From: Dipteris shenzhenensis
Taxonomy: Eukaryota
Reading direction: 5' to 3' (one strand)
Assembly (NCBI GenBank): GCA_047967505.1
Contig: CM106538.1
Length of the DNA stretch: 64,000 bases
The position numbers were made by a program, and so were the translations under genes. Position 1 is the first letter of the stretch. Each line of letters begins with the position of its first letter. The notes below the pieces were generated by a model. The model saw only the letters and a list, made by a program, of their open reading frames with translations, was not told the DNA's origin and did not search any database. Below are positions 3,001 to 53,935 of this stretch, piece after piece.

Positions 3001-4271
3001 GCAGAAGGATTTGCCATGGCTCAGTAGTTTTGTGAAGATATCTACTACTTATTCATATGTGTGACAATAAATAAGATCATTATAAAAGTTTTAGAATACA
3101 AAACATTAGAGGAATTTTGGACTCCAAAAAGGCCTTATAAGGAGTGGATTAGCAAAATGGATAAAGAACTAACAAGGCCTATAGAGGGTGCCATCACCCC
3201 ATATGAATCCAAAAAGTACACCTCCCTAGGCTTTGGTGGTTCCAAAAAGTGCACCTCCCTCTCCCACTTGGAGGGGGCCTCCACTTACAAAAATTCACCC
3301 TCTTTACACCATAAGGTGGTCCCCATCTCGTGGGTACCACTCCCCCAAAAAATTTGACTTTTTTGAAAACTTCAAAACTGACCTAAAACCCTTCCAAACC
3401 TTCCCCCAAACCATGCCTATGCACCCAAATCACTTTCCAACAGCCAAATCCTACTTCTTCTCACCATAGTCACCTTCCAACCCCTAAATCGTACTCTTTA
3501 TCACCATAATTACTTTTCAACCCCTGAATCCAATTTTTTCTCCCCATTTTGTTATGTTGTAATCTCAAATCTATGTTGCTTCCATTGATCCTATTCTACC
3601 TTGTACTAGTTTAAAATCTTTTTTCTTTTGACTTTCATGATTTATTTTTTCAAATCCTCTTATGGTTCCATTGGAAGATCACACCAACAAGCCATTAAAA
3701 AGCACCTTGCACATTGAAGTTGCACTAGACTATGCTACGCCTCTTTAATGCAGTGGCCACAAGATCGTTGACAAAGAAACATTAGATTGACTACAATAGC
3801 CATTAGATCGTTTTAACAAGTGCTCCATCTATGTTTGAAAATGTGACATGGTTTGTTTCAATATGTAGGAGATGGTCTTCAAGGCTTACATGGCTATTGT
3901 AAATTCATTGGTCATACTAGTGCTGAAGCCCAATTTACCATGATTCACTTGTTGAGAATGGAAGAAAATATTAAAAGACTTAAATATACCACGCATACTC
4001 TCCATGAACAACTAACTCAAGAATTAAAAAACTTTCTGATTCTAAAATTACAAAAAAACATCACAAGAGGCAATCACAAGATTAGTTGGTGATAAGAGCA
4101 AATTGTTGAAAGAGACTTGGTCCCTCTAGCAATATCTTGCTACATTAACTAGGAGATTAGAGAAAATAAATCCCTCTTTGTTACAAGCACAGGATCAAGG
4201 CTGTGTAACCAATGGAGAGCTTGGTATATGGTGATGGAGCAAGGAAGCATAGGGTGCAAGCTACATATTGA

Positions 4272-4286
4272 AACAGTGTAACATCT
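4272..4286 (+). repeat. Left terminal inverted repeat
   Basis: AACAGTGTAACATCT, preceded by TTGA. Confidence 0.85.
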
Positions 4287-4773
4287 CATTTGAGAACTAT
4301 AACCTCAAAAAGAGAACTCTAGGGGAATCTTTGAAAGATTTCCTCTTTTTCATGTGAATTTTATGTTTATTTGAAAAAGATAGCCTTTTTGCGTGACGGT
4401 TTTTGAAAAATTTCATAAAAACCATGCTTTTGTGAAATTTTGTCGACAAAGTTTTTTTGGAAAACGGGCACAAACACCTACACTTGGAATACCAAATTTG
4501 CAAAAAATACATTAATTTTTTAAAACCAATACAATAAGGGCCTATGCATCCAATGCTCATAAAAGGACCATGGCATAACACATTTCAAAATCCTAAAAAG
4601 GTACAAATCACATTGTTGCACAAACATACATGCCACTGATCCTACAAAGAATAATACTTATCCTTTGATCCTACACCTTCAAATGCACTAGAGCCTGAGC
4701 TTTGTGTGGTAGAAGTTGAACATCCTTCTCTAGGCTATCCACTAGAACATTCTCCGAGTCAACCTGGGTAAGT

Positions 4774-7641
4774 TTAGCTGCCACCCTCTTTTTTGCATGG
4801 CGTGTCTTGGCTTCCATTTGTTGACTGCATCCAATTAATGTCTTTAATATTTTTTGGGATATTATGTATTGTCTCCTTTGGTAAATGCCCGGCTTGTGTT
4901 AATTGAAATGCATATACCAAAATATCTACCTCATCCAATTGTAGAGTATCAATTCTTGGACAATTCTTTGTCGCCCTCTTCCCTTTTTGGCCATGCTTCC
5001 TTGTTACCACCATCTCTGGGTTATATCGACCCATGAAAGCATCCATGGACTTGGTGAAAAACCAATGGACCTCTATTGACTTGGTGTTTGAACCTTCCTT
5101 TTTGACTTTCACAACTTTAGCAATCCAAAAAGGAAATCCACTAGGATCATTTCTTGCTAAAACAGCAACCATCATACCCACTGCCAAGTCCTCGATGATA
5201 CTACTCCACATTTCTTGAACCCTTTCCCTGGCCTTTTTTAGACTTTCTTGCTCCAAGGTACATTTCTCTCTCCTCCCCAAGATAGTTCTTCTTTGAAGGT
5301 GCATGTAAATGCGCACTTGAAGAAGCATTCATACGTGCATTTACAAAATCTTGTTCAATGCATTGTGGCCAACTAAAATCTGACACATCTTGGGGGTCAT
5401 TTAGTAGGTGATTGATAAGTGTTTGGGATACAAAGAATGGATTCCACCATGTCCACACCACATCTTCAAAATATGTTGCAACATGCTGGATTGTTTCTCT
5501 AATCTCATTGACTGAACTTATAGGGTTTGCATCTCTCCCCTCCTTCATGGCTCGTTGCAACTCCCTCACTGATTGTAAAGGTTGTAAGGGTGCCACATAC
5601 AACTCACACTCTGGAACACACTTCAAAAACTTCAATCCTTTGACTGGAACCCAAGTTGGTGATGTGGAATAGAACTTCCCCCACAACAACGTCGTGCCTT
5701 CTTGATCTTTCTTCATTCGAAATTGGTGTTGAAAGCTTAACTCGTTGAGCTTCTCAATAGATCGATCAATTGGCTTGTTGTCACCAAACACAAAGTGTCT
5801 GAAATCTGTTGTTTTTTCCATGTTTGTAATTATCAGTTTTGGCACATATGCATCCTATAAAATGCGTATCATTGCCCTATCCCATGCTTCTTTCCTTCTC
5901 AGCTTTACTGAGAACTAGCTAAACATCTAATCAATATGGTCGTGTGTGTGACCCACCATAAGGAATCCTAATTTCACTTTTAGAAATATGCCTTTCTCAA
6001 CAAGCATGCAAAGATATGCCAACACAACTTGATTCTTGTTCTCTCTCGATGTGTTATCAAGTTGGACATACAACACTTTTGGAAGAGGTTGTGTAAGATT
6101 CCTCAATGCATCATTAAGAATGAAAACTGTGAGATTTCTTACATTTGGTGTCGTAAGATAAACCTTGGGGATTAATTCACCATGGTAGATCATGCATCCA
6201 ACCATGTGATATGTGATGAAGTTCTCCTCTTTCAAATCATTGGGCACTGGTTTGAAGTGTGGAAGATTGGTCTTCTTTTGATCCATCCCATCAATGATGA
6301 TGGTTATGTACTTGTCAGGCTGTTGGTAGCTCTTCTTGCGATGTTTCGCTAACTTCTTCCTTTCTAGAGCTTGCATTTCTCAATGCATTTGCAATTTTGT
6401 GATTGTTTCTTCTGCAAATATAGAAAACAATTAGATGTTGCAAGCAAACCATTTTTGTCAAAAAGAAGCAAAATTTCACGGTATCATTACACACACCTCT
6501 CTCTTGTCCTTGACTTCTATTATGCAAGACCTTCAAGTTTGCACATGTGGCACACACACCAAAGCGACAAAGCTTTGGTATCTTCACATTGTTGAATTCA
6601 TTCTTCCAAATCCTACAAAAATGATGGTATGTCACGTACTTGTCACCTGTAGTAACCATGGCATCCTTGTACATGGAATGGATCTCAAGCTTGGAGAAAT
6701 TATCTGATAAGTGCAACTAGTCACTATTTAGAAGAGCCTCGGCATGTTTTTGCACAAAGTCTTGCAGCCACAAGCATACCATATTGCCATGTGGTCCAGG
6801 CACTCTTATTTTCCTGCTATACAAGTGCAGGGGTCTTTATAGAGGTGGGCCTATAATCTTTTTAGCCTTTTGTTGCCAAGACAATGTGCAAGTCCATATG
6901 CTTTGCAACAAACAATCCTTGAAACGAATTTTGTTCATATTGTTTTCCGTAGGTCTTACAAACCATGCTAAATAAAAATTTTGATCATCTTTATTCATTT
7001 CAACATAATTTTGCCACCGTAAGACCCTTAATTTTGCAACCCCAAAAGTGACTAGGCACATTCTGCTACAGCAAAGAGTATTGCAAGTCTCTTTCAAATG
7101 TGCAGTGTCTAGCATTATACGAGATCTCCCTCTTGTGTAGCTAGACTTTTTGACGTCCACATTCATTGGTCTTCCCTTTAGTCTTAATAGACGAGATTGA
7201 ATTCCACTTCCCCTTTTGTGATAGCCGAGACAGTCATTGAGATCCATCTGGATTAGATGTCCCTTGTAAGAAATAATTTCTAGCTCCAAAAACAAAACAA
7301 AGAGAGCCATTGAATGAACTTAGACATGGACCACATACCTGATAACACTTGTTGACCTCTCGTGCTTGCTTCGACATCTATTATTTCATTGTCTTCAATG
7401 GGAATATCAGGTCCATGGATTTGAGTACCTAGGCTTCTATGTCCACCATCATGCTTAGGTAAAGGAGTAGGAGACACATCCAAGGTGGCCAAAAAGGTTC
7501 CACCACTAGTACAAAATACATGCAATGTAGCAAAGCACCCTTGGAACTGTGAGAAGAAGAAATTGAGATAGACGTAGTGTCAAATAAACCTCCCATGCAG
7601 AAATTTGGCAAGCTTCAAAGGGGATGCCCCAAAAGTGCCAT
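4774..7641 (-). pseudogene. Sola/DUF7869-like DDD transposase (stops and frameshifts; GT-AG intron at 6496-6412)
   Basis: Motifs CCSRMC, FCRIWKNEFNNVKIPKLCRFGVCATC, IIIDGMDQKKTNLPHF, LYVQLDNTSRENKN, FLMVGHTHDHID. Removing intron 6496-6412 joins ORF 6716 in frame to ORF 6376. Start and end coordinates are approximate. Confidence 0.8.
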
Positions 7642-8319
7642 GCAACAATGAAAGGTAGAAATTATGTGCCTGACCATAAAAGTCAAGGTTAGGTTTAGGG
7701 TTTTGGAGCATAGAGGAATTTCTAAAAATAGTATATTTTCTCTATAAACATGAGATTCTCACATTTGTTTCTCATTATTTCCAAATATGCCCAAGAGTTC
7801 AAAGAATCACCAGGTATGTGCAATTTTCTTATGGTTAAGTGTGTTTTATTTTTAATTCAGTCATGAAATCAAATTTTACTGTGTGCTTCAATATAATTTA
7901 CCGTATTTAAAAAATGGGGGTGGTGTGCTTGAATATTATTTAAAGTACTTTATGTTTGCTTTTTTGAAAGCACATTGCTTTGATTGCTAGTCTATCCTAT
8001 TTTACTAAAAATAAAAAGAAACATTTCTAAAACTAAATTCCTCTATATTCTACCCCAATCCCTTCTTGTTAGTTTCTCTAACCTCTCCATCTCTCCCTCT
8101 ACCATCTACCCCTCTCAGCTCTCCAGCTTTGCTAGGTAAGCTCTCCATCTCCTCATGCATTTGTTTAATTTTTTTTGGACTGAAGGGAGCTGCTTCTTCC
8201 CCGCCATCTTTTTCTTCTTCTTCCCCACCATCTTCTTCTTCTTCTTCCCTGAGCTCCCCCACTGATGCGCCCGTCGATTCTCCTCCCCAACCTCTTTTTC
8301 CCCTCACAGATTCAACACA

Positions 8320-8486
8320 CCTTCCACCATGCATGCAACCCAGTCGATGATATCATCGATTGGGCGCTTGCCCGGTCGATGATATCATTGACGAGCTGGT
8401 AGCCTGTCGATGATATCATCGACCGGGCAATGCGCCCATCAATGATATCATCGACTAGGCTACCAGGCTGCATGCATGGTGGAAGG
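8320..8486. repeat. Long hairpin containing four copies of palindrome GTCGATGATATCATCGAC
   Basis: Copies at 8343, 8375, 8406 (perfect) and 8438. Outer arms CCTTCCACCATGCATGCA (8320-8337) and TGCATGCATGGTGGAAGG (8469-8486). Confidence 0.92.
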
Positions 8487-8499
8487 CAAGGTGTTAGCC

Positions 8500-8500
<1 letters not shown>

Positions 8501-8552
<52 letters not shown>

Positions 8553-8659
8553 AGGGAGAGAATCAGAGAGGGAGTTAGGGAGAGAGGGAGAGAAGGAGAG
8601 AGAGAGTTAGGGAGAGAAGGAGTTAGGGAGAGAGGGAGAGAGAGAGTTAGGGAGGTAGG

Positions 8660-8709
<50 letters not shown>

Positions 8710-8716
8710 GTGAGAG

Positions 8717-8766
<50 letters not shown>

Positions 8767-8772
8767 GGAAGA

Positions 8773-8814
<42 letters not shown>

Positions 8815-8859
8815 GTGAGAGGGGAGAGAGAGAGAGAGAGAGAGAGAGAAATAGGAAGA

Positions 8860-8952
<93 letters not shown>

Positions 8953-8972
8953 TAGTTGGAGAGAGGGAGAGG
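8501..8972 (+). repeat. Interrupted (GA)n microsatellite upstream of the ParB-MTase gene
   Basis: About 470 bp of GA dinucleotides with recurring AATAGTGAGAGGGG and AATAGGAAGAAAG interruptions. Confidence 0.95.
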
Positions 8973-9352
8973 GTTTTTTGGTAAATTTTGTTTATTTTTT
9001 GGTCAATTTGTATTGAAAAGCAAAATTTTCTCTTCGAATTATGGAGTTGTTTTTTGTGTTTTTAAATTAAATTTGTGAGAGAGAGAGAGGTGTTTTGGCC
9101 ATAATTTTGTAGTTTTTGCATTGTAGTGTTGTTACTTTCCATGCTTTTTTCTTTTTTATTCTCTAGTCCAAAATCATGTTCCAGTAATAAGCATGTCGGC
9201 ATCTTTTTCCATGAAGAATGTAGATGTTAGAAGCTCAAAGTCTTTTTAGAAACCATCAAACTTGTTGTACTAGCTTTTGTTTTTTTCAACTTGAGATATT
9301 CTCTCCATGATATCATAATATTTTGACATTGTTTATGTCTTTTATAGGTATC

Positions 9353-12300
9353 ATGTCGAACAAACAACCTTTCGGAGAAATCCGTGTCTTTGGAAAGCCC
9401 ACATCGGAGGATGCTTCCAAAAGATAAGGGTGGAAAAGAAAGGCACCAAGGAACCAAAGAAAAGTGTCAAGGATCCAAGTCTTGAGGTGCAACAGCTTCA
9501 ACAGATTTATGATGTTCCTGCTCCGTTGGATGTTCGTTGCAAATTCGAAAATTATGGGACATAGCGAAGTACACAATAACATTGATTCAAAATGGACCAT
9601 CAAAGTTGACACTGATACAAAAGAGATTACTTTGTTGCTTCCAAAGACACTTCCCACTGGAAGATCAGTTTTTAAGCCAATAATATAGATTAAAGATATC
9701 TCAAGAAGTGAGTCCAATGAGGAATGTGTTGAAATGCTTGGGATTGATAACAATAAGAAACCTATTGTTTGTATTGTTATGGAAGAGAAGTTCTCTTTGA
9801 AAGCTGTTACTCCACCCGCTATAGCGGAACAAATAAAACAAATCAAAGAGGAAGGGAAGGTTAGTTACTATCGATAAGTAATTTCTAATTTTCTATGTTT
9901 ATGTAAATTCTTTTGAATACTATGAGAGATTCAACTTTGTTTTGTGTGTCCAGAATCTTATTTATCACTTGACAAATCAAATTGTGGAGGTTGATGAAAT
10001 AATCAAGGAGATGGAGGTATCAACTTCCAATAGTGATTCTGAGGAGCATACAGAGGAGGGTTATGAAGAAGATACCGCAACATCACCAATCAAACCAAGA
10101 GATTCTTCAAAGTCAAAAGGAAAGGGATCTTCCATGTTGGAGCTGAAAATTTTGGGTTTAATACACAAGGATTAAGAACTCCCATGGGTTCACATGGATT
10201 GAGAGCACCTTCTCTTTTAGGCCATCATGGATTGAGTGCACCCCCACGTGGGCATGGTTTGAGCGCACCCCCAAGTCGGCATGGTTTGAGTGCACCACTC
10301 CCGAAAAAATGACCTCTATTGGCTACAAGTGCGTTTCCTCTTGAGTCTTATGAGGATGTTGTTGAGGAGACTCCATCTATTGCACAAGGGAAAAAACAGA
10401 GTAAACCAGGATCAAAGGCTCCAAGGAGAGTACAGCCATTGGATATCATTGAAATCCCAACTAGTGGTGAGCTGCAAGTACCAGGAGCTGACATTGGAGA
10501 TGGTACCTCAGATACACAACAAAATAGAGTCCGAGCAAAGGTACAACAAGATAACCTTGTGGATCGACAGACTTTCTTCTTGCACATTGATCATGTTATT
10601 AAACCTCCTATTGATCCTAGGACTGCTGGCCTTCGACCATTTGAGGTGCATGCAATACATCCTTTCCATATTGAGAATTTGAAGTCATGAAGGAAGGACA
10701 ATCTACATGCACAAGTTGTGAACTACATTGTGCTCGTGGATACAAAAGATTGTCTAGACAATGCATCTTTTGATCGTCGGAAAGCAAATGATTATAACCA
10801 CTTTGTTCTTGGAGGCTTCCATTCAACAAAGGCAAAAAGGCAGTTGAATATTGAGTTTCCATGCAACTCTCATTACAAGACATGTAATTGTACAGTTTAT
10901 GCTGGTTTGACTGATTTGGAGCAAACTTACTGGCTTTTGATCACAATAATGACAATGACTATAGGAAGTCCATGTCTTGGATAGAACGGGTTCGTTTCCA
11001 TCACAATGAGCTCATTTACAAAACTCAATGAGGATTGTTCTTTGATCACTCTAGAGTTTCACTTGTCTTTGTTGAATGAGACTAGGATTTCCGCAACAAT
11101 TAAAGATCCGTCAAGGCCAAGTGACAGCTTCAGATCATGGGACGGTTTCAAATTGCATTTCATAGTGGAGAAGTTTGGGATTTGATAAATGCAATTTTTT
11201 CAAAGTCGGAGAATTTTGAAATCAAAGGGCATAAAAAACTCAAACCTAAAGGAGTCAAGAAAGAAACCTAGACCTTGAGAAGGCATTACCTGAAGAAATT
11301 CGAGCCACAGCATAGAAGAGCATGTAGGGAATTAAAGATGAGATTCTAATTAAGTATGTGCTTGGCAGAGTGGTGTTTGGGGATCTCTCTTTAGATGAAA
11401 TGGCAATGAATTTGATGAGTAAGTAAACTTCTCTCCTTTGCATCATGTCTCTTCTTGATTTTACGTTAATCTCTTTACGAATAATGTTTCAATAGACTTT
11501 GTTTCAACTGTAAAAGTGAGAAGAATTTTACATGTGTTTTCAATGCAGGCATAAAATATACATGAGAATGCAGGAAGCAATGATCCAGCAATTGAACATG
11601 CCAGATTGGGATGCTATTCAGGAGGAGTATCCAGAGAGTAGTAGGATGGAGAGCTTGGCTCCATATTTCAATGTATTCAAAAGCATGGTATGTCAAATTT
11701 GGTATACATATGCTAATGGAAATTTTCTTTCGAATTGTAGATTTGAATGTTTAAGATATTGAGCTATTTTTTTGACAACCACCTCCAGAAAAGAGGCAAG
11801 AAGGGATCTGAGAGTAGTATGATGCCTGCAAGCTTTAAGCGATTGATTGACCGGGCTGCAAAAGAAAAAGACCGTCAAACTTGACAACAATCTATAACTC
11901 TTAGTGATGACATGTTAGAGTTTGACAACCATCCACCAAACTTTTATCGTGTGCTCAACGAAGATTGCAATGAATTGTCGAAGATAGTTCCAAAGAATGA
12001 GTACACATTGGTCATTGCAAACAAACCATATAGATTTGATGTTCCCGGATCCACCTTTGATGAGGTCCCTTACAAAGAAAAGGAACTAATGAGTCTCCTT
12101 GACCAATTCATGTCAATTACGATGGCAACACTTTGGCATGTCATAATTTTTCATTCAAACTTGCAGTATGGGGCAGTGATGAGTGTCATCAATGATAAAT
12201 GTGCTAGATGTGACCACCTTTATTGATGAGTGTAGCAATGAAATGCAAAGATTTTTTTGGCTCAATTATTATTGTTATAATTGTGGTTTCTTTTGATAAA

Positions 12301-12822
12301 TTTAAAACTTATTTTTGTTTCATGTCGTAGGATGAAACCCAATGTGAGACAAATGAAAGGACATCGATTCACGTCTACTATAGAAAACATTTCAGTTGGG
12401 TATTGTATCAAAAACCACAACTCCTAATTAATCAACTCATAGATTTGTTTTCAAATGAGTATGAGTGGGTACTCGATTTATTTGCTGGTTCAGGCACAGT
12501 CACAGCACGTGCCTTAAAAAAGGGTCGAAATGTAATTGCAATTGAAAAAGATCCTATTCAATGTGATTACATAAAGAAGAGAGTGACTGCTATTCATCAC
12601 TTGCCTGATGAGCATCAGGAGCTTGGTTTGAAAGGTGGGAAGTTCAATGTAGATTCGGTGGTAGCCTCGTCAAGGGAGCCCCAACCTCTTGAGCTATTGA
12701 AACCCGATTTTATGGAGGCAAGCGAGCTAGCTGATACATGGGAGAAGGAGGTTGTGAAAGAGAAAGCGATTGACAAACCCATACAGGAAACCCAGACTGG
12801 GAGGGTGATGAAGATGAGGTAG
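9353..12822 (+). pseudogene. Spliced gene: ParB-like domain fused to beta-class N6/N4 DNA methyltransferase
   Basis: ParB-like segment LRPFEV..HIENLK..NYIVLVD..FVLGGFHS..VYAGLT..LAFDHNNDN (10570-10990). Catalytic motif LVIANKPY (NKPY at 12020-12031) precedes QKPQLLINQLIDLFS..VLDLFAGSGT..GRNVIAIEKD (12409-12552). Frame-preserving introns at 9860-9953, ~11423-11548, 11688-11788 and 12226-12330 (donor apparently mutated GT>AT). Several stops and frameshifts. Confidence 0.85.
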
Positions 12823-13136
12823 ATGACACATATGGGAGAATTGAGTAGACTCTAATTATGGAATTGTATTGACAATTTTTTGTATTTGAATGGTTTCAAT
12901 AGACAAGTGTTCTTAAGACATTTTAGAATCCATATGCTTTGAATGTTTTGAACATTTAGTTTTCCCCATTAATTTGTTGTTGGGGATGGTTATGAAGATG
13001 ATGTAGATGACGCATATGGGAGAATTGAGTAGACTCCAATTATGGAATTATATTGACAATTTTGTGATTTTGAATTGTTTCAATATACAAGTGTTCTTAA
13101 GACATTTGAGAATCCATATGCGTTGAATGTTTTGAA
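12808..13136 (+). repeat. ~180-bp tandem duplication at the 3' end of the MTase gene
   Basis: Unit ATGAAGATGA..GTAGATGAC..ATATGGGAGAATTGAGTAGACTC..GAATGTTTTGAA occurs at ~12808 and ~12992. Confidence 0.85.
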
Positions 13137-13529
13137 AAAGGAGGCATTTACTCTTTCCCATTAATTTGATGATATTTTTTGTTCTTTCAATACTTTATGT
13201 GATACCACAAAGTTTAACTTAAGAATTTTGATAAGGTTATGTTACTACACACAGGAATGAAAGTTGTATCATGTAGTTTTTCTATTGAAAATAAAAGGTC
13301 AAAGGAAGGAAAAAACTTAGAGACTTCTTGATTTTTCTAAATACATTGATATTGTGCTCTGTAGTCAAGGTCCTTCATAATTTGCGAGCATTATGTACCA
13401 AAATTGATACGATTTTAAAAGTTTTGAAAAATTCACTACACAAAATATGACCTTTTTTTGAAATTTTTATAATTTTAATGAATTTTTTAGGGAATCTTAA
13501 AACAAGTACCAATGTTACATACTTGAATT

Positions 13530-13544
13530 AGATGTTACACTGTT
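13530..13544 (-). repeat. Right terminal inverted repeat
   Basis: AGATGTTACACTGTT, the exact reverse complement of the left TIR, followed by TTGA. Confidence 0.85.
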
Positions 13545-15775
13545 TTGACTATTTTGTAATTGTGATGCATTACTTACAACCATGTAGTTGTGTATTTTTC
13601 TAATGTCATCGTTCTTTTTACAAGAATTTTATGGAGGAGGTTACTGGAAAAGAATTCCTATAAAACTTTGTACTGTAAAGAGTGTAGTGAAGAAGAGGGA
13701 TCTTCGTCAGTGTGCATTGTGGCATACAATATTGCAAGAGGTTGCACCTAGGAAATATTGTAGACCTATTAGAAGTTGTCCATGCATGTGATGCTGCAAG
13801 CATTAGTAGAGAAGGGTACGTAGTTGTATATAATGTCTTTGTAAAAGCACTTTGAGGTGAAGGTGTGAAGAATCTTTTGTTTCCAAGACCATTACATGTT
13901 AGAAATGTAAGAGAAAAATAAATTCTACTCTCCAAGATCTATTGTATGGGATTTATACACATTTCAGAAAGCATGATGTTGGAAGGCACAAACAAGACAA
14001 GGCCAAGAGAGTAGAAAGAAAGGTGAACAAGCTACCAAGGGGGCAGAGTGTAACAATGTCTTTTTGGATGTACACAACGTCCAAGCTGCAATGGTAGTGT
14101 TTTACAATATGGAATCATAGGGTAAGTGACATTTCTCTTGTTTATTTGAGTCGCAATTTCTTAAAGGTCTTTTTAAATAGTCTAAATCTTATAATTTTTA
14201 AGATTGTGAATAAAAGTTAGTATTTGTGATTAAGTTGGTTATCAAAGGCCATAAGTTAGAGAGGTTGAGTATTACTTTGATGAATGAAGCCCTTGAACAT
14301 GCCAAAAAAAGGGAAGTTAGAGAGGGCCACTTTTTTAGCTCTCATTTCCATAGGGTAGGCTAGGGCTTGGATGTGTTTTGATCACAAAACAAGTAGATGC
14401 TAATGCCCTACAATGTGGGTTTGGAGCTAGTAATGCCACTTGCACAAGGTCAAATTGACTGGATTTCTCTCCGTCTAGACCTTTGGCAAAGTCCTCTCAC
14501 TATGACATTATTACCCAAGCCTTGAGCTCTTAAACGGACCTGTTCGCCACCCTCAGTCCTTGAACCCATGAGTTGAACCATGGTGAGTTGGGATGTAGAT
14601 GGATTCCATGATTATGCAAGATAGGACCACAGCACTAGATTCTTCACTAGAATTGTAGAGCCCTTGTAAGGGGGCCCAATAGACAATCTTATGCTTCATG
14701 ATGAAAAACTCTCTATCATTGTTTGACATTGATTTGTGCTAATTGATGCCTTGACCATCATTTTAAATTGTTGTAGACTATTTGGAGCTCCTCTTGAAAT
14801 TTTCATAAGCTCATAAATGTTTTGTTTTATATTTGGATAGAAGAGTACTTCTCCTCAAAGATAGTGATGGTTTGTAACATAGTTTTTTCCCATCTTCTTG
14901 AAGGATTTTATACAATGATTGTTTCATCTCTTCTATCCAAATTTTCTTCCTTTGAAACTTCCTAATAAGCGCATGGATAAATAAATAGATTTGGGTATTC
15001 TATCAGAAATTGCATGTTGCAATTTCTTTCATGGAATTTCGAACTCTCGTATAATTTATGGTGTACATTCCAATTTGATACTACAATTTTATTCTAAAAA
15101 TGTAAATGTCTACAAGAATTTCATATATCATTGAATCAAATGGAGACATTTCAGAATCAATATTTCTAAATGCATGACGTACTCTTGTTTGTTCTTTATG
15201 GATAAAGACTTTGATATGTCTCATTTTTAAAATACCTGGAGACATAATTTTGTGCATGTGGACTTTGTTGGGGACTCCTCTCAAGGGGTTAAAGATATTG
15301 TGTGATTTGTTGGGTTCTCTTGGAGTCGGTCGGCTAGTCGTATGATCATGAGGTGGTTGCGAGGCTTTGATTGGTGGACCATGCAAGTATTTGGAGGCCG
15401 GCCAATGCATGCAGTATGTGTGGTGGTTCCTTGGTTGAGAGCAAGTAGTTTTTGAAGGTTCACGTGCGGCAACTAACTTCTCTCTCAAGCTGATCAATAT
15501 ATGAACCATGGAGGCAATTGGATCCATCTCTTTGTCAAGGCCGTCGAGCTTGTAGGAGTCGCAACTAGTAGTTGCTTATAGTTCTAGGTATAGGAGTCAT
15601 TTGCAGGTCTTGTAATAGCCAACAAACCCCGTAGGGTTGAGGCTCATTTTGTCAACAAATAATAGGAGGAGTCGAGTCGTTTTCATTGCAGTATTTCATC
15701 TTTTCTATATCACTCTTTTGATGCTATATGTGAAGAGTTGATCTCCAATTAGTTTGATGCTTTGAGAGACAACCG

Positions 15776-40745: not shown

Positions 40746-43384
40746 TGTTGGAATACTGAAAGGAAAGAGTAGAGTGGACACAAAATCAGAATACTTGCTT
40801 ATGGAATGAAGAAAAGTGAGGTCCTTAAGTAGGCACCTCATACAAGCTCACTGACATCACTGATGACTTCAGAGCTCCACAATCATCTCCTCAATCTGCT
40901 CCTAGATTCTCTCAATCATCCTATGTGGCTCTCCACCACCTAACTGTGCTTGTGGGCACCTAACTGTGCCTCTAGCACTCACACATAGAAACATAAGGTG
41001 TGCCTGAGGCATACACCTTCAGATATCCCAACAAACCCCTCCTCAAGGAAATGCCTCAGGCTATGTCAAGGATACATCTAGTCTCATAGTTTCTCATGCC
41101 ATCTCATGGTGGTCAAGGATTAATCTATGGCTAGGTTCTCATGCTAGCAAGGGTTCCCTTGGGTGTAAGGTAAACAAAAGGGATACAAAAAGACCTTCCA
41201 ATGGTTATCTCCCCTGCATGTACATGCACACAATGTCTGCAGGAGGTACCATGGAACAAAACATACACATGGCCTACATCATAAGGTGACCAGAGGTGTT
41301 TACAAAACACACAAAACACAATAGTTTATTTTCATTCATTTTGGAGGACTATCCAGGCTGAGTACCTTGACATAAAAAGAGAGATCTGGAGCATACATAG
41401 AGATGTGTTTAAAATGCATAATCTTCAAAGGATGCCTCATCTTGTGGAGGCTCATTAACTGTAAGTAGATTTGCATTTTCTGTCTTTGCTTTGGCTCTGC
41501 AAAACTTCTCATGATGGTTGTTCTTGCCACAGTGCTTGCATGGATTAACTTTGAAGCAGTCCTTTGAAAGGTGATTTGTCTTTCCACAGTGATTGCAAGG
41601 AGTATACTTGCCCTTCTTGACTTTTACAGCATAAGCAGTGTCATTGCCTTTCCTTAGCTCCATATGCCTTTCTTCTTCTTGGAGAGCAGAGATAATGCCT
41701 TCAAGGTTAGGATTGGGAAGATTCTTCAAAGTGCTAACAATGTGATCAAAACTTTCAGGCATACTCTTAAGTAACACTGCCATAGCATCATCAGGAGTGA
41801 TAGGAGAGTTGATAGAAGCTAATTGAGTCATAAGACTCCGCATATAGTTGACATGAGCAGCTAAAGTAGTATCACTTGCCATCTTTAATTCAAAGAAAGA
41901 GATTTTAAGTGATAGTTTAGAGATGTGAGAGCTTGCACCAAAAATCATGTCTAGCTTCTGCCAAGCTTCCGAAGGAGACTCCAAATCAGAGATATGGTGT
42001 ATATAATCATCACCCAAAGCAAGAGTAATGATACCATATGCCTTTTCTTCTCTTGCTGGATCCCTTGCTGGTCGTGTCGGTGTTGAGGATTCTCCAGCAT
42101 TGGAGGCTGTAGAAGAAGCGGTAGGAGTAGGTTTGACAAGTCCCCATAAGTTCTCCCGCATCAATGCAAATTTCACCTTCATTTGCCATGTATGGAAGCC
42201 CTTTCCATTGAACTTCTCAAGATTATATATGGTAGCCATGAGAGGGTCTAACCCAGATATTGGGCAGTGTCTATCTCTCTTACAAGGCAAAAATAACTGA
42301 AAGACTTCCAAAATATGAGCACTTAATGTAGCAAATAGTAGTGACTAGATTTCAAACAATGATGCTTCTTCTTACATGCTTCATAGAAGTGGATGAAATA
42401 AACATTTTCCAATCAAAACCAGGTCTAGCAAGTCAAAACAAAACTGAATCCACACTTGTACTGAAGTTATTGAAAGCTTCAAAAAACCAGAAATGCTAGA
42501 GTAGCATTTTATGTAGCATCATCTTCAAAAACTTGTCCAAAACTATCAAAACTGAAAAGCTGAACTTGGAGGGCTTGTAGCTCACTCTTCAAAGCAAGGA
42601 AAAGAGGGCTTTCTGAAGCAAAAGAAAGCTCATATACCAGAGAAGGTCCAGCACAGAGGTTGGACGAAATGGTGCGCACTTTTGCCCGGGAGAGTTGCTA
42701 CAGGCTGAAACTGAGTTTTGACGATTTCTCCCTCGTTACTGAACCAAATGACCTGAAAAATGGCTCAAAATCTTCGTCTTGAGGTCGCCCATCTACTCCT
42801 AAGAGGGCTCAGGCAGTGGCAGAGTAGGCAGGGAGTATTGAGCAACAGAAGAAATTCGCTGTTTGGAGAATGGCAGCCACCACAGACGTTTTTTCTTCAA
42901 TTGCTTGCAGGTGGAAGTTCGCCCATACTAGAGGAGTTTCCAGCTCAGAGGGTTTGGGCAATGGCTGTTTGTAGATGGAGAACCAAGCTCTCAAAGATTT
43001 TGGGAAGAAAGAGGAAAATGGAGAAGAAGAAGAAGATGATGATGATGATGATGTGGCAGAAATGGGCTCAAGGGGGATCAAAGGGCTCTGATACCATGTT
43101 GGAATACTGAAAGGAAAGAGTAGAGTGGACACAAAATCAGAATACTTGCTTATGGAATGAAGAAAAGTGAGGTCCTTAAGTAGGCACCTCATACAAGCTC
43201 ACTGACATCATTGATGACTTCAGAGCTCCACAATCATCTCCTCAATCTGCTCCTAGATTCTCTCAATCATCCTATGTGGCTCTCCACCACCTAACTATGC
43301 TTGTGGGCACCTAACTGTGCCTCTAGCACTCACACATAGAAACATAAGGTGTGCCTGAGGCATACACCTTGAGATATCCCAACA
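40746..43384 (-). mobile_element. Gag-only non-autonomous LTR retrotransposon (TR-GAG type), 2,639 bp
   Basis: 288-bp TG..CA LTRs at 40746-41033 and 43097-43384 (3 differences seen); TSD CATGA; PBS at 43085-43096; PPT next to 41034; no pol. Confidence 0.93.
41409..42239 (-). CDS. gag: Intact Gag (276 aa) with two CCHC zinc knuckles
   Basis: MATIYNLEKFNGKGFHTWQMKV..; CNHCGKTNHLSKDC and CKHCGKNNHHEKFC. Confidence 0.88.
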   Translation of the reverse strand: MATIYNLEKFNGKGFHTWQMKVKFALMRENLWGLVKPTPTASSTASNAGESSTPTRPARDPAREEKAYGIITLALGDDYIHHISDLESPSEAWQKLDMIFGASSHISKLSLKISFFELKMASDTTLAAHVNYMRSLMTQLASINSPITPDDAMAVLLKSMPESFDHIVSTLKNLPNPNLEGIISALQEEERHMELRKGNDTAYAVKVKKGKYTPCNHCGKTNHLSKDCFKVNPCKHCGKNNHHEKFCRAKAKTENANLLTVNEPPQDEASFEDYAF

Positions 43385-45441
43385 CATGAGCCAGCTAACT
43401 TTGCACAAGACCAGCATTGGGCTTTTCTTGTTACGTGTCGATATAATCCCGATGTTCATGATGTTCATGAAGGGTCGCGTCGACAAAAGAGAGCACGTAC
43501 AAGATACAGGGGTCGATGAGAAACGCCGTCACGTCAACTAGGATAGATGAAAAAAGGAATACAAGATACTTGTACCTAGACCTAAAGGAATACAAGGTAC
43601 TTGTACCTAGCCCTAGGACTAAGTGTCCTAGGTGTCACATAGAACTAAGTGTCCTATGAGGCCTACCAGGCACAAACGCTACAAGTGCCTATATTTATGC
43701 CTACAAGGCACATACCATAGCCTATAGGGCATCACTAGAACCACCAGGAGATGGCCTACAAACCCCCCTCCATGGGATGGGCTAAAGTACTCTGGAAACG
43801 TCTCAGAATACCTGGTATTTTCTGGTCATCGTGGCACATGTTCCTCCAAAAGGATATAGCCACCTACGAATGTGCAAGGGATGTCAGATCATGTAACAAA
43901 GGGAACCAAGTGTAAAGCCTGTCGAAAGACTTCGAACTTCAGACGAGGAAGTGCCTCTATAAACATATCTCCTATGTTGTCCTCTATGGGAAGATAGGAC
44001 AACTCTATGTCTCCTGTTGACAACCGCTCCCGAACATAATGATAGTGAACTTCAATATGCCTGATACGCGCATGAAACACTGGGTTACGCGCAATGGCCA
44101 AAGCACTCTGACTATCAGTGTAGACCATAGTGGAGGATGTCTGGCGAATACCAAGATTCGTAAGTAACTGTCGAAGCCAAACACACTCTACTGTAGCGGT
44201 GAAAGCTGCCCTGTACTCAGCCTCATAGCTAGATGTGGCAACTGTTGGTTGCTTCTTGCTGAGCCAAGAGATACATGAATTGCCAAGCAAAAAACAATTG
44301 CCAGTATGTGACACTCTAGTGTCGGAACATCCTGCCCAGTCACTATCCGTGTAAGCATGCATAGTAAGTGAACCCTGATCACCATAGAAGAGGGCTAAAT
44401 CCTGAGTGCCTCTAAGATATTTGAAGACTCTCTTCACTGCCTGCCAATGCTGTGAATTGGGCATGTGCATGAATCTGCTGAGCTGACATACTGCATACTG
44501 TAAGTCAGGTTTGGTGTGACATAAATAAATAAGGTACAACCGAAACTGAATTTAAAAACTGTCCACAGCTCTCCCTTCTCCAAAGCTCTCCCTCTCTCTG
44601 GACAAACACTAGGGCCCAGGACAAATTGTCGGGCTGGACCCCCCCGAAGGTCTTTATTACTTTCAGAAAAACTGTTACAAAAGTTCAGCAGGAAGCTGTC
44701 TCGTAAGTCTCTCTCATAAAACGTCAAAAGAACTCTCTTTCTTACAAGAGCTTCAAGCCCCATTCAAATTGGCAACATGCCACTTGTCTAAAATCTAGAC
44801 TAACTCTTATTACAAGCCACATAGGGCCATTCTGGAGTCTTCCAGGCTCTCGGTCACACGAACCGCTTCCTAGGTGCTTGTCAGGCTCCCATCTCGCTTA
44901 GGAAAATAATCCTTCCTAGTACCTGCAACAATTAATTAAAGCGCACCACCATGGTACCCATTAATTGTTAGCGCTTTGCATGCAAAATAACACACTGTGG
45001 ACTAATCCTAGTCACGGTGGGCGTCCCCACTGAACACATGTGCACATCTAAACAAATATATATATATATATATAAATATATATATATTTTCTCTGGTTGA
45101 CCGGAGTCAACACTCTTGATTATAATTAAAGAGCTTCGACCCAAGGTCAGGGCGCCTTAATTATAGCCAAGTCTCTCCAACCGAGGTTGGCACATCTTGG
45201 TTAACCGGTGTTAACCCCTCTTGGCGCATGCCAAGTCTTGTTGACCGAAGTCAACGCTCTCTGACCATAGTCAGGTTTACTTGACTAGAGTCAAGTATCT
45301 TTGACCGTAGTCAATCCTTTGACCATTAAAATAACTCTTTGACCGTAATTAACACATATAAAACTCTTTAATTATGATCAAATAAATGGTCAACTGTACT
45401 TTGACTTAGGATATTTACATTTGGTGACATCCCCTCGGCTT

Positions 45442-48400
45442 CTATTCAGTTGACCTCAACTGAAAAGCTTCCTTGTAAACATCCAAAAGCTGTGGATGAT
45501 CGGATAACATGTCTTCGTCCATCCACTTGGCATCTAATGCCGTATAATTCTTGAATTTTACAAGATACCTGTAAAATTCTTTACCCTGAGGGCCTTTACG
45601 TACAATATGGTACACAATTTGCTCTGGCTGAAGGACTTCCTCCAGCTCATCCACTTCTGGTGGATCTTCTGATACTGGTTCTGTAGGCTCTGGTCCCTGA
45701 AATTTCTTTAGAAGACTCACATGGAATGCATTGTGAATCCTCCAATGCTCTGGCAATGCTAATCTGTATGCAACCTCATTTATTCTTTCTGTAACCCTGA
45801 AAGGGCCATAGTATCTGGGAGATAACTTTGCATACACTTTCTGTTTGCCTTTAAACTTGCGGAGCCTAGCTTTTTCAAACTTTAAAAGTACCCAGTCCCC
45901 TTCCTTGAGATCCAACTGTCTCCTATGTTTATCTGCAGCCCTTTTATGTTTCTCTTGAGACCTTTCAATTGCTGTCCGGACTTGGCTGTAAGCTGTCTGG
46001 AGGTCTCTTACAAACTGATCAGCTGCAAATATTTCATCTTTAGTCCTCAATATAGGTGGCAAAATCACCTTCCCATATATGACTTCAAAAGGGGCTTTCC
46101 CTGTAGAGCTATGTACTGTATTATTGTAAGCAAACTCTACTAACGGTAGGTACTTTTCCCAGTCTGAACTTTGGTCACCCACGTAGCATTTCAGCATATC
46201 CAAAATGGTAGAATTTGCTACTTCACTTTGACCATCTGTCTGGGGATGGAAAGAAGAAGAAAAATTCAAATTCGTCCCCATGTTATCAAATAAAGCTCTC
46301 CAGAATAGACTGGTCATTCTGGGATCTCGATCACTAACAATGGACTTAGGCATACCATGATGTTTAAAGATCTGTGCCATAAACAACTTAGCCATATGAT
46401 CTGCCTTTATGGTTTTGCGAACCGGAAGGAAATGAGCTTGCTTGCTGAATCTGTCTATGATAGTCCAAATCCCGTCATTTCCTGACTTTGATCTTGGCAA
46501 ATCAAAAATAAAGTCCATTGTAATATTTTCCCATGGTGCCTGAGGCACGGGAAGAGGCATAAGTAGGCCAGGTGCCTTCTGTCTATCATACTTCATTTTC
46601 TGACACGTAAGGCATTCAGTAACAAACTGATGTATATCTTTCCGCATTTCTGGCCAAAAGAAATACCTCTCTAGTGCTAGAGTTGTTGCTGTAATTCCTC
46701 TGTGTCCAGCATAGGGAGGTGCATGGCATTCCTCCAAAATCTTTTTCCTCATCTCCTGGGTGATGCATAGGCAATCATCTTTCATTAAATACCCATCTTT
46801 CAGGGAATAGTGACTGGTGGATTGCCCTTCTTGCATCTGCTGTAAAATTTCACCAAAATCAGAATCATGAGCATATTGTTCCCTCATGTCTTCCAGGTCT
46901 TGATGATAAGCAATAGTTACATTATTGACCTGGGGTCTTCGGGACAAGGCATCTGCCACTCTGTTCCGAATTCCTGGAGTATGGACAATCTGAAAATGAT
47001 ACATTGACAGCATGTTTGCCCATTTCATATGCTTCTCTGAAAGCTTGGTCTGAGTCAAAAAGTATTTCAGACTTTGGTGATCTGTTTTAACAGTAAAATC
47101 TGCACCCAAAAGGTAATGTTTCCAGGTATGGATAGCATGAATTACAGCCAATAACTCTTTCTCATAGATTCCTAAATATCTTTCCGCATCCCGAAGTCGC
47201 CTGCTTTCATAAGCTACTACATGACCATTCTGATGCAATGCAGCCCCAACACATTCTCCACAAGCATCACAATCCACATCAAAAGACTGATACATATCCG
47301 GAACTACCAGAATAGGCTCTGTAGTCAACTTTTCCTTGAGTGTATTGAATGCTTTCTTCTGTGATAATCCCCATGTGAAGGCTGCATTTTTCTTAGTGAG
47401 GTCATGTAATGGAGCTGCGATATCAGCAAAATGTCTGATAAACCTTCTGTAGTAAGAACACAAGCCTAAAAAGCTTCGAACTTCATGCACAGTTTTCAGC
47501 TCTGGCCATTCTTGAATGGCACGGATCTTCGCTGGATCCATTTGTATCCCATTCTTGGATATTATATGCCCCAGATAATGGATTTCTTCCAAGAAGAACT
47601 CACTTTTCTTGCTGTTTGCATAGAGCTGATGATTTCTCAGCTCTTGAAACACTATAGCAAGATGTTCTCTGTGGTCTTCATCTGTCTTAGAAAAAACTAA
47701 GATATCATCAAAGAAAGTACCGGTAAAATGCCTGTACTTCCGGAAGATGCGATCCATCATTCTATTAAATGTGGCTGGAGCATTTGTCAATCCAAAAGGC
47801 ATCACTAAGTATTCATACAACCCGAATGTTGTGCGGAATGCTGTCTTATGCACATCCTGAGGCTGTATCCTCACTTAGTGGTAGCCACTCTTCAAGTCTA
47901 TCCTGCTGAAAACTGAAGCTCCATTTAACTGATCCAAGACATCATCAATACGCGGAATAGGGAATCTATTCTTGATGGTCATTTTGTTCAGTGCGCGATA
48001 ATCAACGCACATACGGAATGAACCATCTTTCTTCTGTACTAACAGTACAGGGGAACAAAAAGGAGACGAGCTGGGCTGAATCAAGCCTTTGGACAGCAAG
48101 TCCTGTACTTGAGCCATAATCTCCTCTCTCTGAGTCGCACTGACTCTATAAGGGGGTCTGTTTGGTGGCTCACTACCAGGCATTAACTCTATCTGATGAT
48201 CTTCTGGTCTCTCTGGGGGTAACTCCCCTGGCAAAACATCAGAAAAGCAATCTTTAAAGTTTACCAAAAACTGAAACTTATCTTTGTCTGCATCATTCAT
48301 TTCAGCATGCATATCAGTCTCTTTTTCTTTTACAAAAACCATGTACGCAGAAATTGCAGACTTTATTGCTTTACCGCATGAAACATCAGATACAATGGGG

Positions 48401-50103
48401 ATAGTGTCCCCTTTATTCCTGGCAATTACACGCTGATTTTTCCCCCTATGTACAAATTCCAGCACTCTTTCAGGAAGAGTCAACTTCACTGCCTTACGAT
48501 GAAACCAAGGCATCCCCAAAACTACATCATAATGTTTCAGTGGAGAAATGAAGAAGTCTTCCTGATCCACATAACTCTGAATATGAAGACGGAGCTTCCC
48601 TATCAAGGGAGTAACTGGCACAGGATTCCCACAAAACATTTGATCGGCATCCAAAGCCCTGCCTAGCTCTTCCGTCTTTATTCCCAGCCTCAGGGCTAGA
48701 TCCTCTGATATGAAATTATCAGTAGCCCCTGGATCAAATAAAATCAGCGCTTGCTGGTCTCTAACTTTGCCCCATGATAGCAGCAATTCTCGTTCTTCTG
48801 GGTTCAAAGCATGACCCAGTATATCAGGAATACCCCCCGCCATTGGCTTTTGCGGTCCTCGTGGCTTCTCTGCCTCTTTTCCCTTCGATGATGAAGGCTT
48901 TTCTGGGCACTGGGCAGCCACATGCCCCTCTTTACCGCACCTGAAGCATTTCCCATCTCTACGGAATTCCGCTATCTGTTCAGGGGTAAAAATAGATTTG
49001 CCCTTATAGGTCTTTGAGAACTGAGTACCCCTCGGCTTCTGAGACTGAAACCCTTTCTTTTCAGCCTTAGGGGACTCTTTCTTTTCTGATTTTTGAAAAT
49101 CAGATTTCTTTTTATCAGCACGTCCTGCATGCAAGGATGGCACTGTAGATGGATCTTGTAGCGGTACAAGACTCGCTACTGAGGCTGAATGCATAAGATC
49201 TTGAATATTCTTTGCCCCCAAAGCATTCACTACTGCCTGAATTCTTGGAGTGAGACCTGCTCTGTACTTCCTCATCTGGGTACCTTTGGAGATCTTTTTG
49301 AACGGTGCAACCTGCAAATAAGCATCCCAGAACTTTTGGTTGTACCCATCCACTGTATCTCCTGCATCCATGTGCAAGCTGTCCCAGTCTTGAAGAACAT
49401 GGTCTCTGAACTGTTTAGGCATGAACTGCTGGTAGAAGGCTTTCTTGAAGCCCTTCCACTTTCTTGGGGCTGACCCATCTGTAGTCAGTGCACTCCACCA
49501 TGCACTAGCCGTTGCTGTTAAGTGTAAGCTGACCATTCTTAATTTGGAGGATTCTGAAAATTTCTCTGTACCAAATGCAGCATCAAACTGTCTGATAAAC
49601 TGCAATGCTTTGTCTGTATGACCATACTGTCCATTGTAGGTCATAAACTTGACAGATTTTCCTCCCTCTTTAAATTCCTTGGTCGCTTTGGAAGACTTTC
49701 TCTTCCCAGACTTCTCGTGTTCCTTCTTCCTGGATGGTTTATCTGATAAGGAAGAAGAAGACACAGAAGTCGAACTCGAGGTAGACGGTGATGGACTAGG
49801 AGATCAGTGACGATGCCTCGATCTCTTTTTACTATGGAACCGTCTCCTATGAGATCTATGAGATCTCTCTCTCTCAGACTGTACACGGGAGTGTGCCTCT
49901 GGCATTGGCACGTCATATACTGGATCAGGCATAGCCTCTGCTGGAAACAAATGCTGAGCCCTGGGATCCCTTTTAAGATTTTCCAGCTCTTGTATACGAG
50001 TGCGTACCATTTGTTCAAATTCTTGTTGAGTTTGTGGCACATTCCTCTGTCTTGGATGCTCATCCCTATCTTGAGAATCCCACTGGATAGGTGATTGATC
50101 CAT
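45442..50103 (-). pseudogene. Single-frame gag-pol (gag, protease, RT, RNase H, integrase, chromodomain) with two in-frame stops
   Basis: [45 protein letters not shown]. Stops at 49804-49806 and 47875-47877. Confidence 0.9.
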
Positions 50104-50749
50104 ATTCTGAGATCTGCAGATTTCTCACACAGTGCGGGTAACTGATGCACACTACCTTTGCTTTTCCAACAGAAAAGGTACCTCAACAAGAGGTGTTTTG
50201 CATTCACAATCTATGCCAGTACTGGCTGTCAGTTCAAGGCATGTACCCACACAGTTGCCAAAGCATCATCAACTATGTTGCCCTTTTCTGGCTGCTGCAG
50301 ATGGCTTCAAAAGGCATCTGTTTTTCCCTCTTTTTACTGCTCAAAGGCATGCATTCTCCTTTTTCTGCAAATCTCTGTTTTCTCTGCTTTTCTCTGGTTT
50401 TCTGCTACTTTTCTGACAGTAAAAACCTGACAGGCAGGAGAAAATTGATAGCCAAAACTGTCTCTGCAACTGTCTCTTTTTTTTTTTTTTTTTTTTTTTT
50501 TGAAAACAGTAACCAGATGGAGTGACTGCTAGTTAGTCTAACCAGACTAACTGGTTCTGGTTACACCAACCAAACTGATCTGGTTAGGCCAGATTAACTG
50601 GACTAAAGTTGAACTAACTGGACACTGGTTCAACTAACCAGAGTTAACTGACTACGGTTGACTTAACCAGGGTTTCTCTAACCACAGGTCAACCAACCAG
50701 GGTTTAACTGTACCAGGGTTAACTTAACCACTGGTCTGCCAGGCTGGCT

Positions 50750-50905
50750 GCCACGTGTCAGTGCCATGTCAGCATCTGAGCTGTCTGCCACCTGTACTGC
50801 GCCACGTCAGCGCCACGTGTCCTGTGCCACGTGTCACTGCCACGTCATCTGGTGCACTGTGAACCTGCTGGCTGCCACGTCAGCATCACGTCAGCGCCAC
50901 GTGTC
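50750..50905. promoter_or_regulatory. Cluster of ABRE/G-box-like motifs in the chromovirus leader
   Basis: Four GCCACGTGTC and three GCCACGTCA within ~155 bp. Function is inferred only. Confidence 0.5.
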
Positions 50906-53900: not shown

Positions 53901-53935
53901 AGGATTCTGCTAAGGAGTGTAAGGAGTAGTGCATG

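Follow-up and report, generated by a model that had tools for sequence, protein, structure and literature searches.

DNA transposons that carry ParB-like and DNA methyltransferase functions alongside their transposase are known from algae. According to its published description, Sola1-1_Ec32 from the brown alga Ectocarpus carries, on the opposite strand to its transposase, a gene for a protein that combines a ParB-like domain with a methyltransferase for N4-methylcytosine or N6-methyladenine (4mC/6mA), and its authors propose that this accessory protein binds and modifies its own element (Genome Biol 2025, PMC12477816). In the red alga Bostrychia, Plavaka elements carry, with PAG2 and PAG3, a ParB-N-domain protein and an N6-adenine methylase, and the account given of them proposes the tandem inverted-repeat arrays that adjoin the ParB gene as ParB binding sites (bioRxiv 10.1101/2025.02.11.637652). 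Here we analyze an element of 9273 bp in a 64,000-nucleotide stretch of contig CM106538.1 from the fern Dipteris shenzhenensis (assembly GCA_047967505.1), which we call the window. The boundaries of this element, the homology of its two genes, their recurrence as a pair, the recurrence of palindrome arrays between them, the predicted folds and the decay of the window copy are established in the following. The element is likely a decayed member of a DUF7869, and probably Sola1, transposon family with a lineage-conserved ParB-methyltransferase gene and a palindrome array.

The closest described relative, Sola1-1_Ec32, resembles the fern element in being a DNA transposon with an accessory gene opposite the transposase; it was curated as Sola1, and the likeness rests on the published description, not on a sequence comparison. 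The two differ in size (21.5 kb and a protein of 1104 aa in Ectocarpus, 9.3 kb here, with intact relatives of the protein at ~670-830 aa) and in host (a stramenopile and a fern), and the palindrome arrays present here go unmentioned for Sola1-1_Ec32 in the description consulted here (PMC12477816). The Bostrychia elements, as their preprint describes them, are likewise DNA transposons with ParB and methylase functions and with arrays near the ParB gene. Their transposase, however, is of a different superfamily (Plavaka/CACTA-like), and their functions are divided between two genes, for a ParB-2OG oxygenase and a methylase-SET protein, whereas the fern element has a single ParB-methyltransferase fusion (bioRxiv 10.1101/2025.02.11.637652).

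Beyond algae, ParB-N6_N4 methyltransferase fusions are known from phages and prophages and are reported to be enriched in phages (PNAS 2025, PMC12704722). As described there, they have the same order as the proteins considered here, a ParB-fold N-terminal domain followed by a β-class amino-methyltransferase. In contrast to them, the eukaryotic genes have introns, a long helical insert and a replaced nucleotide-binding arginine, and their ParB part has no detectable sequence match to phage records. DAM-LTR and DIRS retrotransposons carry a prokaryote-type adenine methyltransferase, for which self-marking has been proposed, and are thus similar in placing a prokaryote-type amino-methyltransferase aboard a eukaryotic mobile element; their enzyme, as the preprint presents it, is of the Dam class with a conserved NPP motif and lies inside retrotransposon polyproteins of unicellular eukaryotes, whereas here a β-class N6_N4 enzyme comes from a separate gene of a DNA transposon (bioRxiv 10.64898/2026.05.21.726589). 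The N4CMT of bdelloid rotifers is also a bacterial-type β-class amino-methyltransferase in a eukaryotic genome, but is described as a domesticated host gene fused to a chromodomain, with no ParB domain and not as transposon cargo (PMC8885841).

The preliminary description of the fern element had considered it possibly undescribed. Since Ectocarpus (PMC12477816), Bostrychia (bioRxiv 10.1101/2025.02.11.637652) and the phage fusions (PMC12704722) have been reported, this kind of system is already known, and Sola1-1_Ec32, as published, has the same layout. The literature searched, a limited collection, held no report of the layout in ferns or land plants. Going by the sources just cited, it had been reported from algae only, and is now extended to ferns, a lycophyte, a liverwort, Ginkgo, Chara and hemichordates. 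What is added here is the presence and conservation in ferns, other streptophytes and hemichordates, a regular palindrome array in a transposase family, and non-canonical motifs.

Element boundaries and recurrence of the gene pair

The element spans positions 4272-13544 of the window. Its left terminal inverted repeat (TIR), AACAGTGTAACATCT, occupies 4272-4286 on the plus strand and its right TIR, the exact reverse complement of AACAGTGTAACATCT, occupies 13530-13544 on the minus strand. Both are flanked by the target-site duplication (TSD) TTGA, read directly from the letters at 4268-4271 and 13545-13548. Direct sequence matching thus bears out the 15-bp perfect TIRs and the TSD of the preliminary description; the similarity of the inverted ends runs on to 4290 on the left and reaches 20 nt at 95%. 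The window contains only 2 matches to AACAGTGTAACATCT at ≤2 mismatches and, by self-comparison over its 64 kb, no second copy of the element. Among sequencing runs, one DNA run (X1) was listed with related sequence, at a small share, and no RNA run. In X1, contigs with 80-95% similarity extend over 4273-8165, as three overlapping pieces, and over ~10717-12030; for one related contig the alignment begins at 4273 with the contig's own first letter. The empty site with a single TTGA that had been suggested as a check did not turn up, as none of the pieces listed for this one run contained a joint skipping 4272-13544.

A metagenome scan with the transposase alignment yielded 80 loci; the same scan with the accessory-gene relative P0066 alone found no relative. 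Searched by tblastn with 13 accessory-gene relatives, 13 of the 80 transposase loci contained the accessory gene. We regarded as informative the 17 loci with ≥2.5 kb of sequence upstream of the transposase start, the other 63 being too short on that side. Eleven of the 17 carry the gene, and among the 63 short loci, L059 and L071 have accessory-gene matches downstream. The 11 positive loci represent nine lineages at ≤77% nucleotide identity in the transposase gene, with near-duplicates in L002/L004 (99%) and L007/L020 (100%), and all except the rearranged L020 show the divergent orientation of the window. A comparison of the two match lists for contigs of equal size, as a test of linkage, produced no coincidence.

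In the best-preserved arrangement, that of L002, 37-nt TIRs (97%) at 98-134 and 7655-7691 enclose an intact transposase open reading frame (ORF) of 890 aa and a three-exon accessory gene, in which open frames are maintained through the three methyltransferase-gene exon ORFs. The expectation that both genes would lie inside the same TIRs therefore holds for L002 as regards the enclosure; the window TIR itself was absent, at ≤3 mismatches, from the ends of all 80 related loci. In L014, both genes are flanked by a perfect inverted repeat of 26 nt with its arms 8.6 kb apart; the end of the contig truncates it. In the metagenome contig L080 (1059-7643), the accessory gene is an uninterrupted ORF of 828 aa with the motif DPPY, and two ORFs make up the transposase, which has 26% identity with the fern query; the break lies a short way upstream of GHTHDDVDQ, and the second ORF opens with MMVGHTHDDVDQ. 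Termini vary between families except for a common AACA start: those of L001, L002, L003 and L036 all end in ...GGTGTT, with different flanks, and have the AACA start in common with the window. This transposase family has the ParB-like methyltransferase gene as a recurrent and lineage-conserved passenger; the two are not neighbours by chance.

L010 (1-8811) is inserted in the pol gene of a Ty3/gypsy retrotransposon, between reverse transcriptase (RT)/RNase H and integrase. Both junctions show TAGGGAA, and no matching TIR could be defined at the ends of this locus.

The accessory gene has named relatives in Adiantum (two species), Diphasiastrum, Riccia, Ginkgo and Chara (six or more genes) and, among hemichordates, in Ptychodera and Saccoglossus. 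This distribution, which takes in ferns, a lycophyte, a liverwort, Ginkgo, Chara and hemichordates, is patchy. Three hemichordate proteins from these two genera (P0084, P0103, P0109) have the ParB-like and middle regions, as well as a portion of the methyltransferase region, in common with the plant proteins, with DVPxxW in place of the plant D-x-P-Y-G-F; their E-values for the ParB region are weak (P0084 2e-5, P0103 4e-4, with P0109 a cluster member of P0103).

Transposase and accessory protein

The transposase of the window copy is a pseudogene on the minus strand (4837-7199), whose alignment with the fern protein P0014 (870 aa) covers residues 46-806 of the latter; full-length relatives align over the same 7199-4837. 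Its DUF7869 catalytic core, located by Pfam match and alignment at 5678-6235 on the same strand, contains the motifs IDGMDQ, QLDN and GHTHDHID. A single transposase ORF in the window matches Pfam DUF7869 at E 3e-29, and with the three in-frame stops just downstream of the GHTHDHID motif read as X, the match to DUF7869 (PF25273) has E 2e-41 and 142.1 bits against a cut-off of 26, covering profile positions 3-186 of 192. Relative to the intact single ORF of L002, the window gene has 7 in-frame stops and 2 frame changes, with some stops at conserved positions, as in GHTHDHID*MFS*FS.

The longer-protein search gave 36 transposase relatives, 35 of 697-1036 aa and one fused protein of 1820 aa; these longer relatives come from ferns, a liverwort and animals. 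In 29 aligned relatives D326, D404 and D446 (P0014 numbering; IDGMDQ, QLDN, HTHDxID) are invariant, which fits a DDD enzyme and upholds the minus-strand DDD transposase noted previously. Bao and co-workers are said to have defined Sola, in 2009, by a 4-bp TSD and a DDD triad. The window copy has TTGA on both sides, and the triad is found at the level of sequence; we consider the transposase most likely to be of the Sola1 type, and its membership in Sola otherwise plausible. Its only link to curated Sola1 is the accessory gene in common with Sola1-1_Ec32 as that element is described (PMC12477816).

The C-terminus of the transposase (4837-5300, minus strand) forms a conserved module, VGM.VA..A....FWIAKV...VHWY...AF.G.Y..E, which is common to fern and other relatives and has no match in Pfam. 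That it might be a chromatin-reader-like targeting domain is speculation.

On the plus strand, where the preliminary description had placed a divergent, spliced gene for a ParB domain and a methyltransferase, the window contains a ParB-like and amino-methyltransferase pseudogene at 9350-12822, with an approximate start. Aligned to the same relatives, its parts follow each other along the window as ParB-like region, helical middle region, motif IV exon and motif I exon. The remnant of the ParB/Srx-fold N-terminal domain (VLGGFHSTKAKRQL ... VYAGLT; 10565-11010, plus strand), recognized from homologues, with the fold modelled on the homologue P0039, is broken by a TGA stop at ~10691 and a frameshift at ~10915-10921. 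Alignment to relatives places the exon with methyltransferase motif IV, which reads NKPY, at 11945-12223, and Pfam together with alignment places the motif I exon (FAGSGT; N6_N4_Mtase) at 12406-12822, both on the plus strand, so that motif IV (~12020) precedes motif I (~12480). The ORF at 12331-12822 matches N6_N4_Mtase (PF01555) at E 8e-13, with 49.2 bits against a cut-off of 26.7, and matches phage DNA methylases (4e-9, tblastn). Near 12400 the frames overlap and relatives have ~44 more residues; part of the methyltransferase domain appears to have been deleted there. A tandem duplication of ~185 bp at 87% identity, found by self-comparison at 12799-13171 on the plus strand, spans the 3' end and stop-codon region of the gene.

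Two alignment gaps, one following SLDEM and one following the motif IV exon, fall where L002 has introns, which shows that the accessory gene is a spliced eukaryotic gene. In this respect the earlier view stands; the gene is not intact, though, and much of the apparent splicing in the window is frameshift or deletion damage. The stretch that corresponds to exon 1 of L002, also a single exon in L010, contains 8 in-frame stops and 2 frame changes. Given such stops and frame changes by comparison with intact relatives, both genes of the window copy are pseudogenes. The window copy is therefore unable to methylate, contrary to the idea that it has a 6mA/4mC writer of its own.

The word depth in X1, which is not a copy number, was ~312-362 for contigs on 9005-10806 and ~6-14 over the rest of the element. 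This stretch comprises the upstream region and the N-terminal half of the accessory gene, and one X1 contig departs from the window sequence at 10806. The stretch may have been amplified as a derivative, or another repeat may carry it as a fragment.

The assignment of the N-terminal domain to ParB is based on homologues and predicted structure, not on Pfam, in which a weak DUF6551 match on exon 1 of L002 (E 0.031) was the sole related signal; a tblastn search of phages with window 10313-10984 gave no match. When the ParB-like region was used as query in an exhaustive HMMER search, 70 relatives reached E≤1e-3. Using ParB-like relatives as alignment, we built two AlphaFold models, both of relatives and not of the broken window copy. 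The model of P0039 (predicted local distance difference test, pLDDT, 78.9) matched ParB of M. xanthus (7bnk_A) with Z 10.9 and a root-mean-square deviation of 2.0 over 96 residues; 25 chains reached Z≥8, and the best-scoring rows all had the ParB/Srx fold (ParB, Noc, PadC, KorB with Z 8.8, and sulfiredoxin). For the full-length model of P0066 (pLDDT 78.6), the top Foldseek matches were M.BceJIV, CcrM, M1.HpyAVI and RsrI, at E 8e-10 and weaker, and the rotifer N4C enzyme (structure 8s9m) was also among the matches. These models predict a ParB fold for the N-terminal domain and a β-class (CcrM/RsrI-like) amino-methyltransferase for the C-terminal domain. N6_N4_Mtase was present in 3 of 10 long relatives scanned, the methyltransferase domain of a Ginkgo relative matches the phage family phrog_67 at E 1.5e-27, and motif I (SGSGT/AGSGT) and the D..P-Y/H core are retained across ferns, Ginkgo and Chara.

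Palindrome arrays and their interpretation

Between the two genes, as had been noted, lies a palindrome. Repeat analysis resolves it into four GTCGATGATATCATCGAC-type sites, at 8344, 8376, 8407 and 8439, within a composite palindrome of 167 bp (8320-8486; no strand). The four window palindromes are 16-18 bp long each, and TCGATGATATCATCGA occurs four times at 8344-8454, twice exactly and twice with one mismatch, where 0.01 occurrences are expected by chance. In the related loci the pattern CGAT[AG]..[CT]ATCG has 108 matches in 368 kb, compared to 6-15 in 20 shuffles. Eight two-gene loci contain the pattern, with 43 matches in total, and every one of these is located between the two genes; the arrays, of the form CGAT[AG]-spacer-[CT]ATCG, have a period of roughly 40-52 bp and sit 0.5-1 kb upstream of the transposase start. 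The half-site is constant while the spacer varies by lineage. L080 has a different palindrome, TCAAAATATTTTGA, in six copies and also between divergent genes. When a strict rule is applied, 5 of the 11 loci that carry the accessory gene contain recurrent palindromes, and none of the 6 informative loci that lack it do. The palindrome array is thus a feature of the transposon family and not peculiar to the window copy. Judged by their sequence, these are candidate parS-like inverted-repeat arrays near the gene.

Sequence inspection shows that the palindrome is adjoined by a (GA)n-rich microsatellite of ~470 bp with a repeating internal pattern (8494-8961; no strand). It enlarges the intergenic region relative to related loci and is probably specific to the window copy.

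In a set of lineages of this family, the transposase gene, the divergent accessory gene and the array of short palindromes between them form a fixed core. The accessory protein is predicted to begin with a ParB/Srx-fold domain, which is followed by a helical middle region and, at the C-terminus, by a β-class amino-methyltransferase. We propose that in intact copies it would recognize the palindromes, as ParB and KorB recognize inverted-repeat sites, and would then methylate the N6 of adenine or the N4 of cytosine, either on its own element or close to it; this methylation might regulate the divergent promoter region or mark the element. Analogy, together with co-variation, gives about an even chance that the accessory protein binds the palindromes, and the same lines of argument leave its methylation of the element a roughly balanced proposition. 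The window copy is capable of neither and could at best be mobilized in trans. A further-reaching and tentative view, which we consider rather doubtful, is that the ParB-like methyltransferase and its array are a eukaryotic counterpart of ParB-parS that was carried by Sola1-like transposons through land plants, charophytes and deuterostomes, the site co-evolving with the protein, and that intact fern copies bind the array and deposit 6mA/4mC.

A number of results weigh against the reading of a Sola1-like family with a conserved, functional ParB-methyltransferase gene. The accessory gene is missing from 6 of the 17 informative loci (L038, L053, L057, L058, L061, L062) and is therefore not universal to DUF7869 elements, so that the possibility of transposase copies lacking it, foreseen in the preliminary description, is realized in part, next to the 11 loci that do carry it. 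For ten of the 11 positive loci the source assemblies have a common id prefix, and these loci may go back to a single campaign and a small number of organisms. In Riccia, none of three accessory homologues is adjacent, by locus tag, to the nine DUF7869 genes listed, which include only proteins of ≥689 aa. The flanks of L002 show no TSD (TGGC and CAAT), and the 4-bp TSD is consequently documented only by the window copy; L002 may be a chimeric short-read assembly.

To the same side belong several properties of the accessory protein. Pfam ParBc (PF02195) had no match on window 10313-10984 even at E≤10, none in 10 long relatives scanned (E≤0.01) and none in the products of L002, L010 and L080 (E≤0.1), and a PDB sequence-profile search for the ParB part with alignment A1 returned nothing; of the ParB domain claimed for the window, it is the predicted fold of P0039 that speaks in favour. 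The nucleotide-binding arginine of ParB (GxxRxxA) is replaced by S, T or C: the family consensus is V-I/L-G-G-x-H-S/T/C-x-x-A-R/K, and the window, with GGFHSTKAK, lacks the canonical arginine of the ParB cytidine triphosphatase. At motif IV, where (D/N/S)-P-P-(Y/F/W) is canonical, the four relatives aligned to the window have DIPH, DFPY (twice) and DAPY; the window has NKPY and L002 has DIPY, with the canonical DPPY occurring only in the distant L080. Owing to this non-canonical motif IV, catalytic activity is uncertain.

The loss of the first proline of motif IV in the four aligned relatives, with NKPY in the window and DIPY in L002, is what would be expected if the methyltransferase domain were dead and the accessory protein were a regulator that binds DNA in a sequence-specific manner and, like KorB or ParB, represses or activates the divergent promoters. 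The presence of KorB among the structural matches (Z 8.8) and the position of the palindromes in the upstream region common to both genes are compatible with such a role. Yet motif I and the D..P-Y/H core are retained across ferns, Ginkgo and Chara, L080 has the canonical DPPY, the frames of L002 are open through the three methyltransferase-gene exon ORFs, and the methyltransferase domain is confidently modelled, its predicted structure matching active DNA methyltransferases; we consider a regulator without methyltransferase activity possible, if on the unlikely side. It is less probable still that the arrays are bound by the transposase, or serve as hairpin or recombination structures, and have no relation to the ParB-like protein. 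Repeats in internal or subterminal positions are often bound by transposases, the arrays are situated 0.5-1 kb upstream of the transposase start, and the window sites form one long palindrome capable of forming a hairpin; however, the half-site TCGAT(G/A) is not found in the TIRs of the window or of L002, recurrent palindromes are lacking from the six loci (a small sample) that have the transposase without the accessory gene, and the red-algal Plavaka elements, with a different transposase, are also described as having arrays by the gene for the ParB-domain protein (bioRxiv 10.1101/2025.02.11.637652).

The affiliation of the transposase and the origin of the gene pair have alternatives of their own. 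DUF7869 could be a separate or unnamed DDD superfamily that merely has a 4-bp TSD too, and no paper naming DUF7869 was found in the limited collection of literature searched; the 4-bp TSD and the DDD triad fit the definition of Sola. We hold a placement outside Sola to be improbable, also in view of the one published element with the accessory gene on the opposite strand, which according to its description was curated as Sola1 (PMC12477816). As for a chance juxtaposition, or a one-off capture of a methyltransferase gene from the host or by horizontal acquisition, the single copy in the 64 kb of the window speaks for it. This explanation is already contradicted by the pair's occurrence in 11 of 17 informative loci from nine lineages, by the enclosure of both genes in the TIRs of L002 and by the related X1 contigs that cover both gene regions, and is extremely unlikely.

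The window copy is a fossil without activity of its own; intact copies are available in related contigs such as L002. Enzyme-written 6mA/4mC in land plants is disputed, and a transposon family with a conserved amino-methyltransferase gene provides concrete candidates for it; if the eukaryotic ParB-parS view were true, the family would be a natural transposon-borne source of DNA methylation other than 5-methylcytosine in a land plant. The recurring, lineage-variable arrays between the genes offer a ready binding-site hypothesis for the ParB-like domain.

Genomic surroundings of the element

The region at 41409-55615 of the window is rich in retrotransposons. Matches to Pfam and to homologues reveal a Ty3/gypsy gag-pol on the minus strand, in two long open frames at 47875-49803 and 45442-47874, and fragments of Ty1/copia gag and RT are found at 41409-42344, 52578-53909 and 54977-55615. 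Among named relatives, those in Adiantum nelumboides, a fern, match the neighbouring Ty3/gypsy ORF best, at 55-66% identity as against ~40% in seed plants, which points to a fern as the most likely source of the window. The long overlapping ORFs at 57174-59710 and 60920-61588 have no Pfam match, and over window 56001-64000 the GC content climbs to 54-61%.

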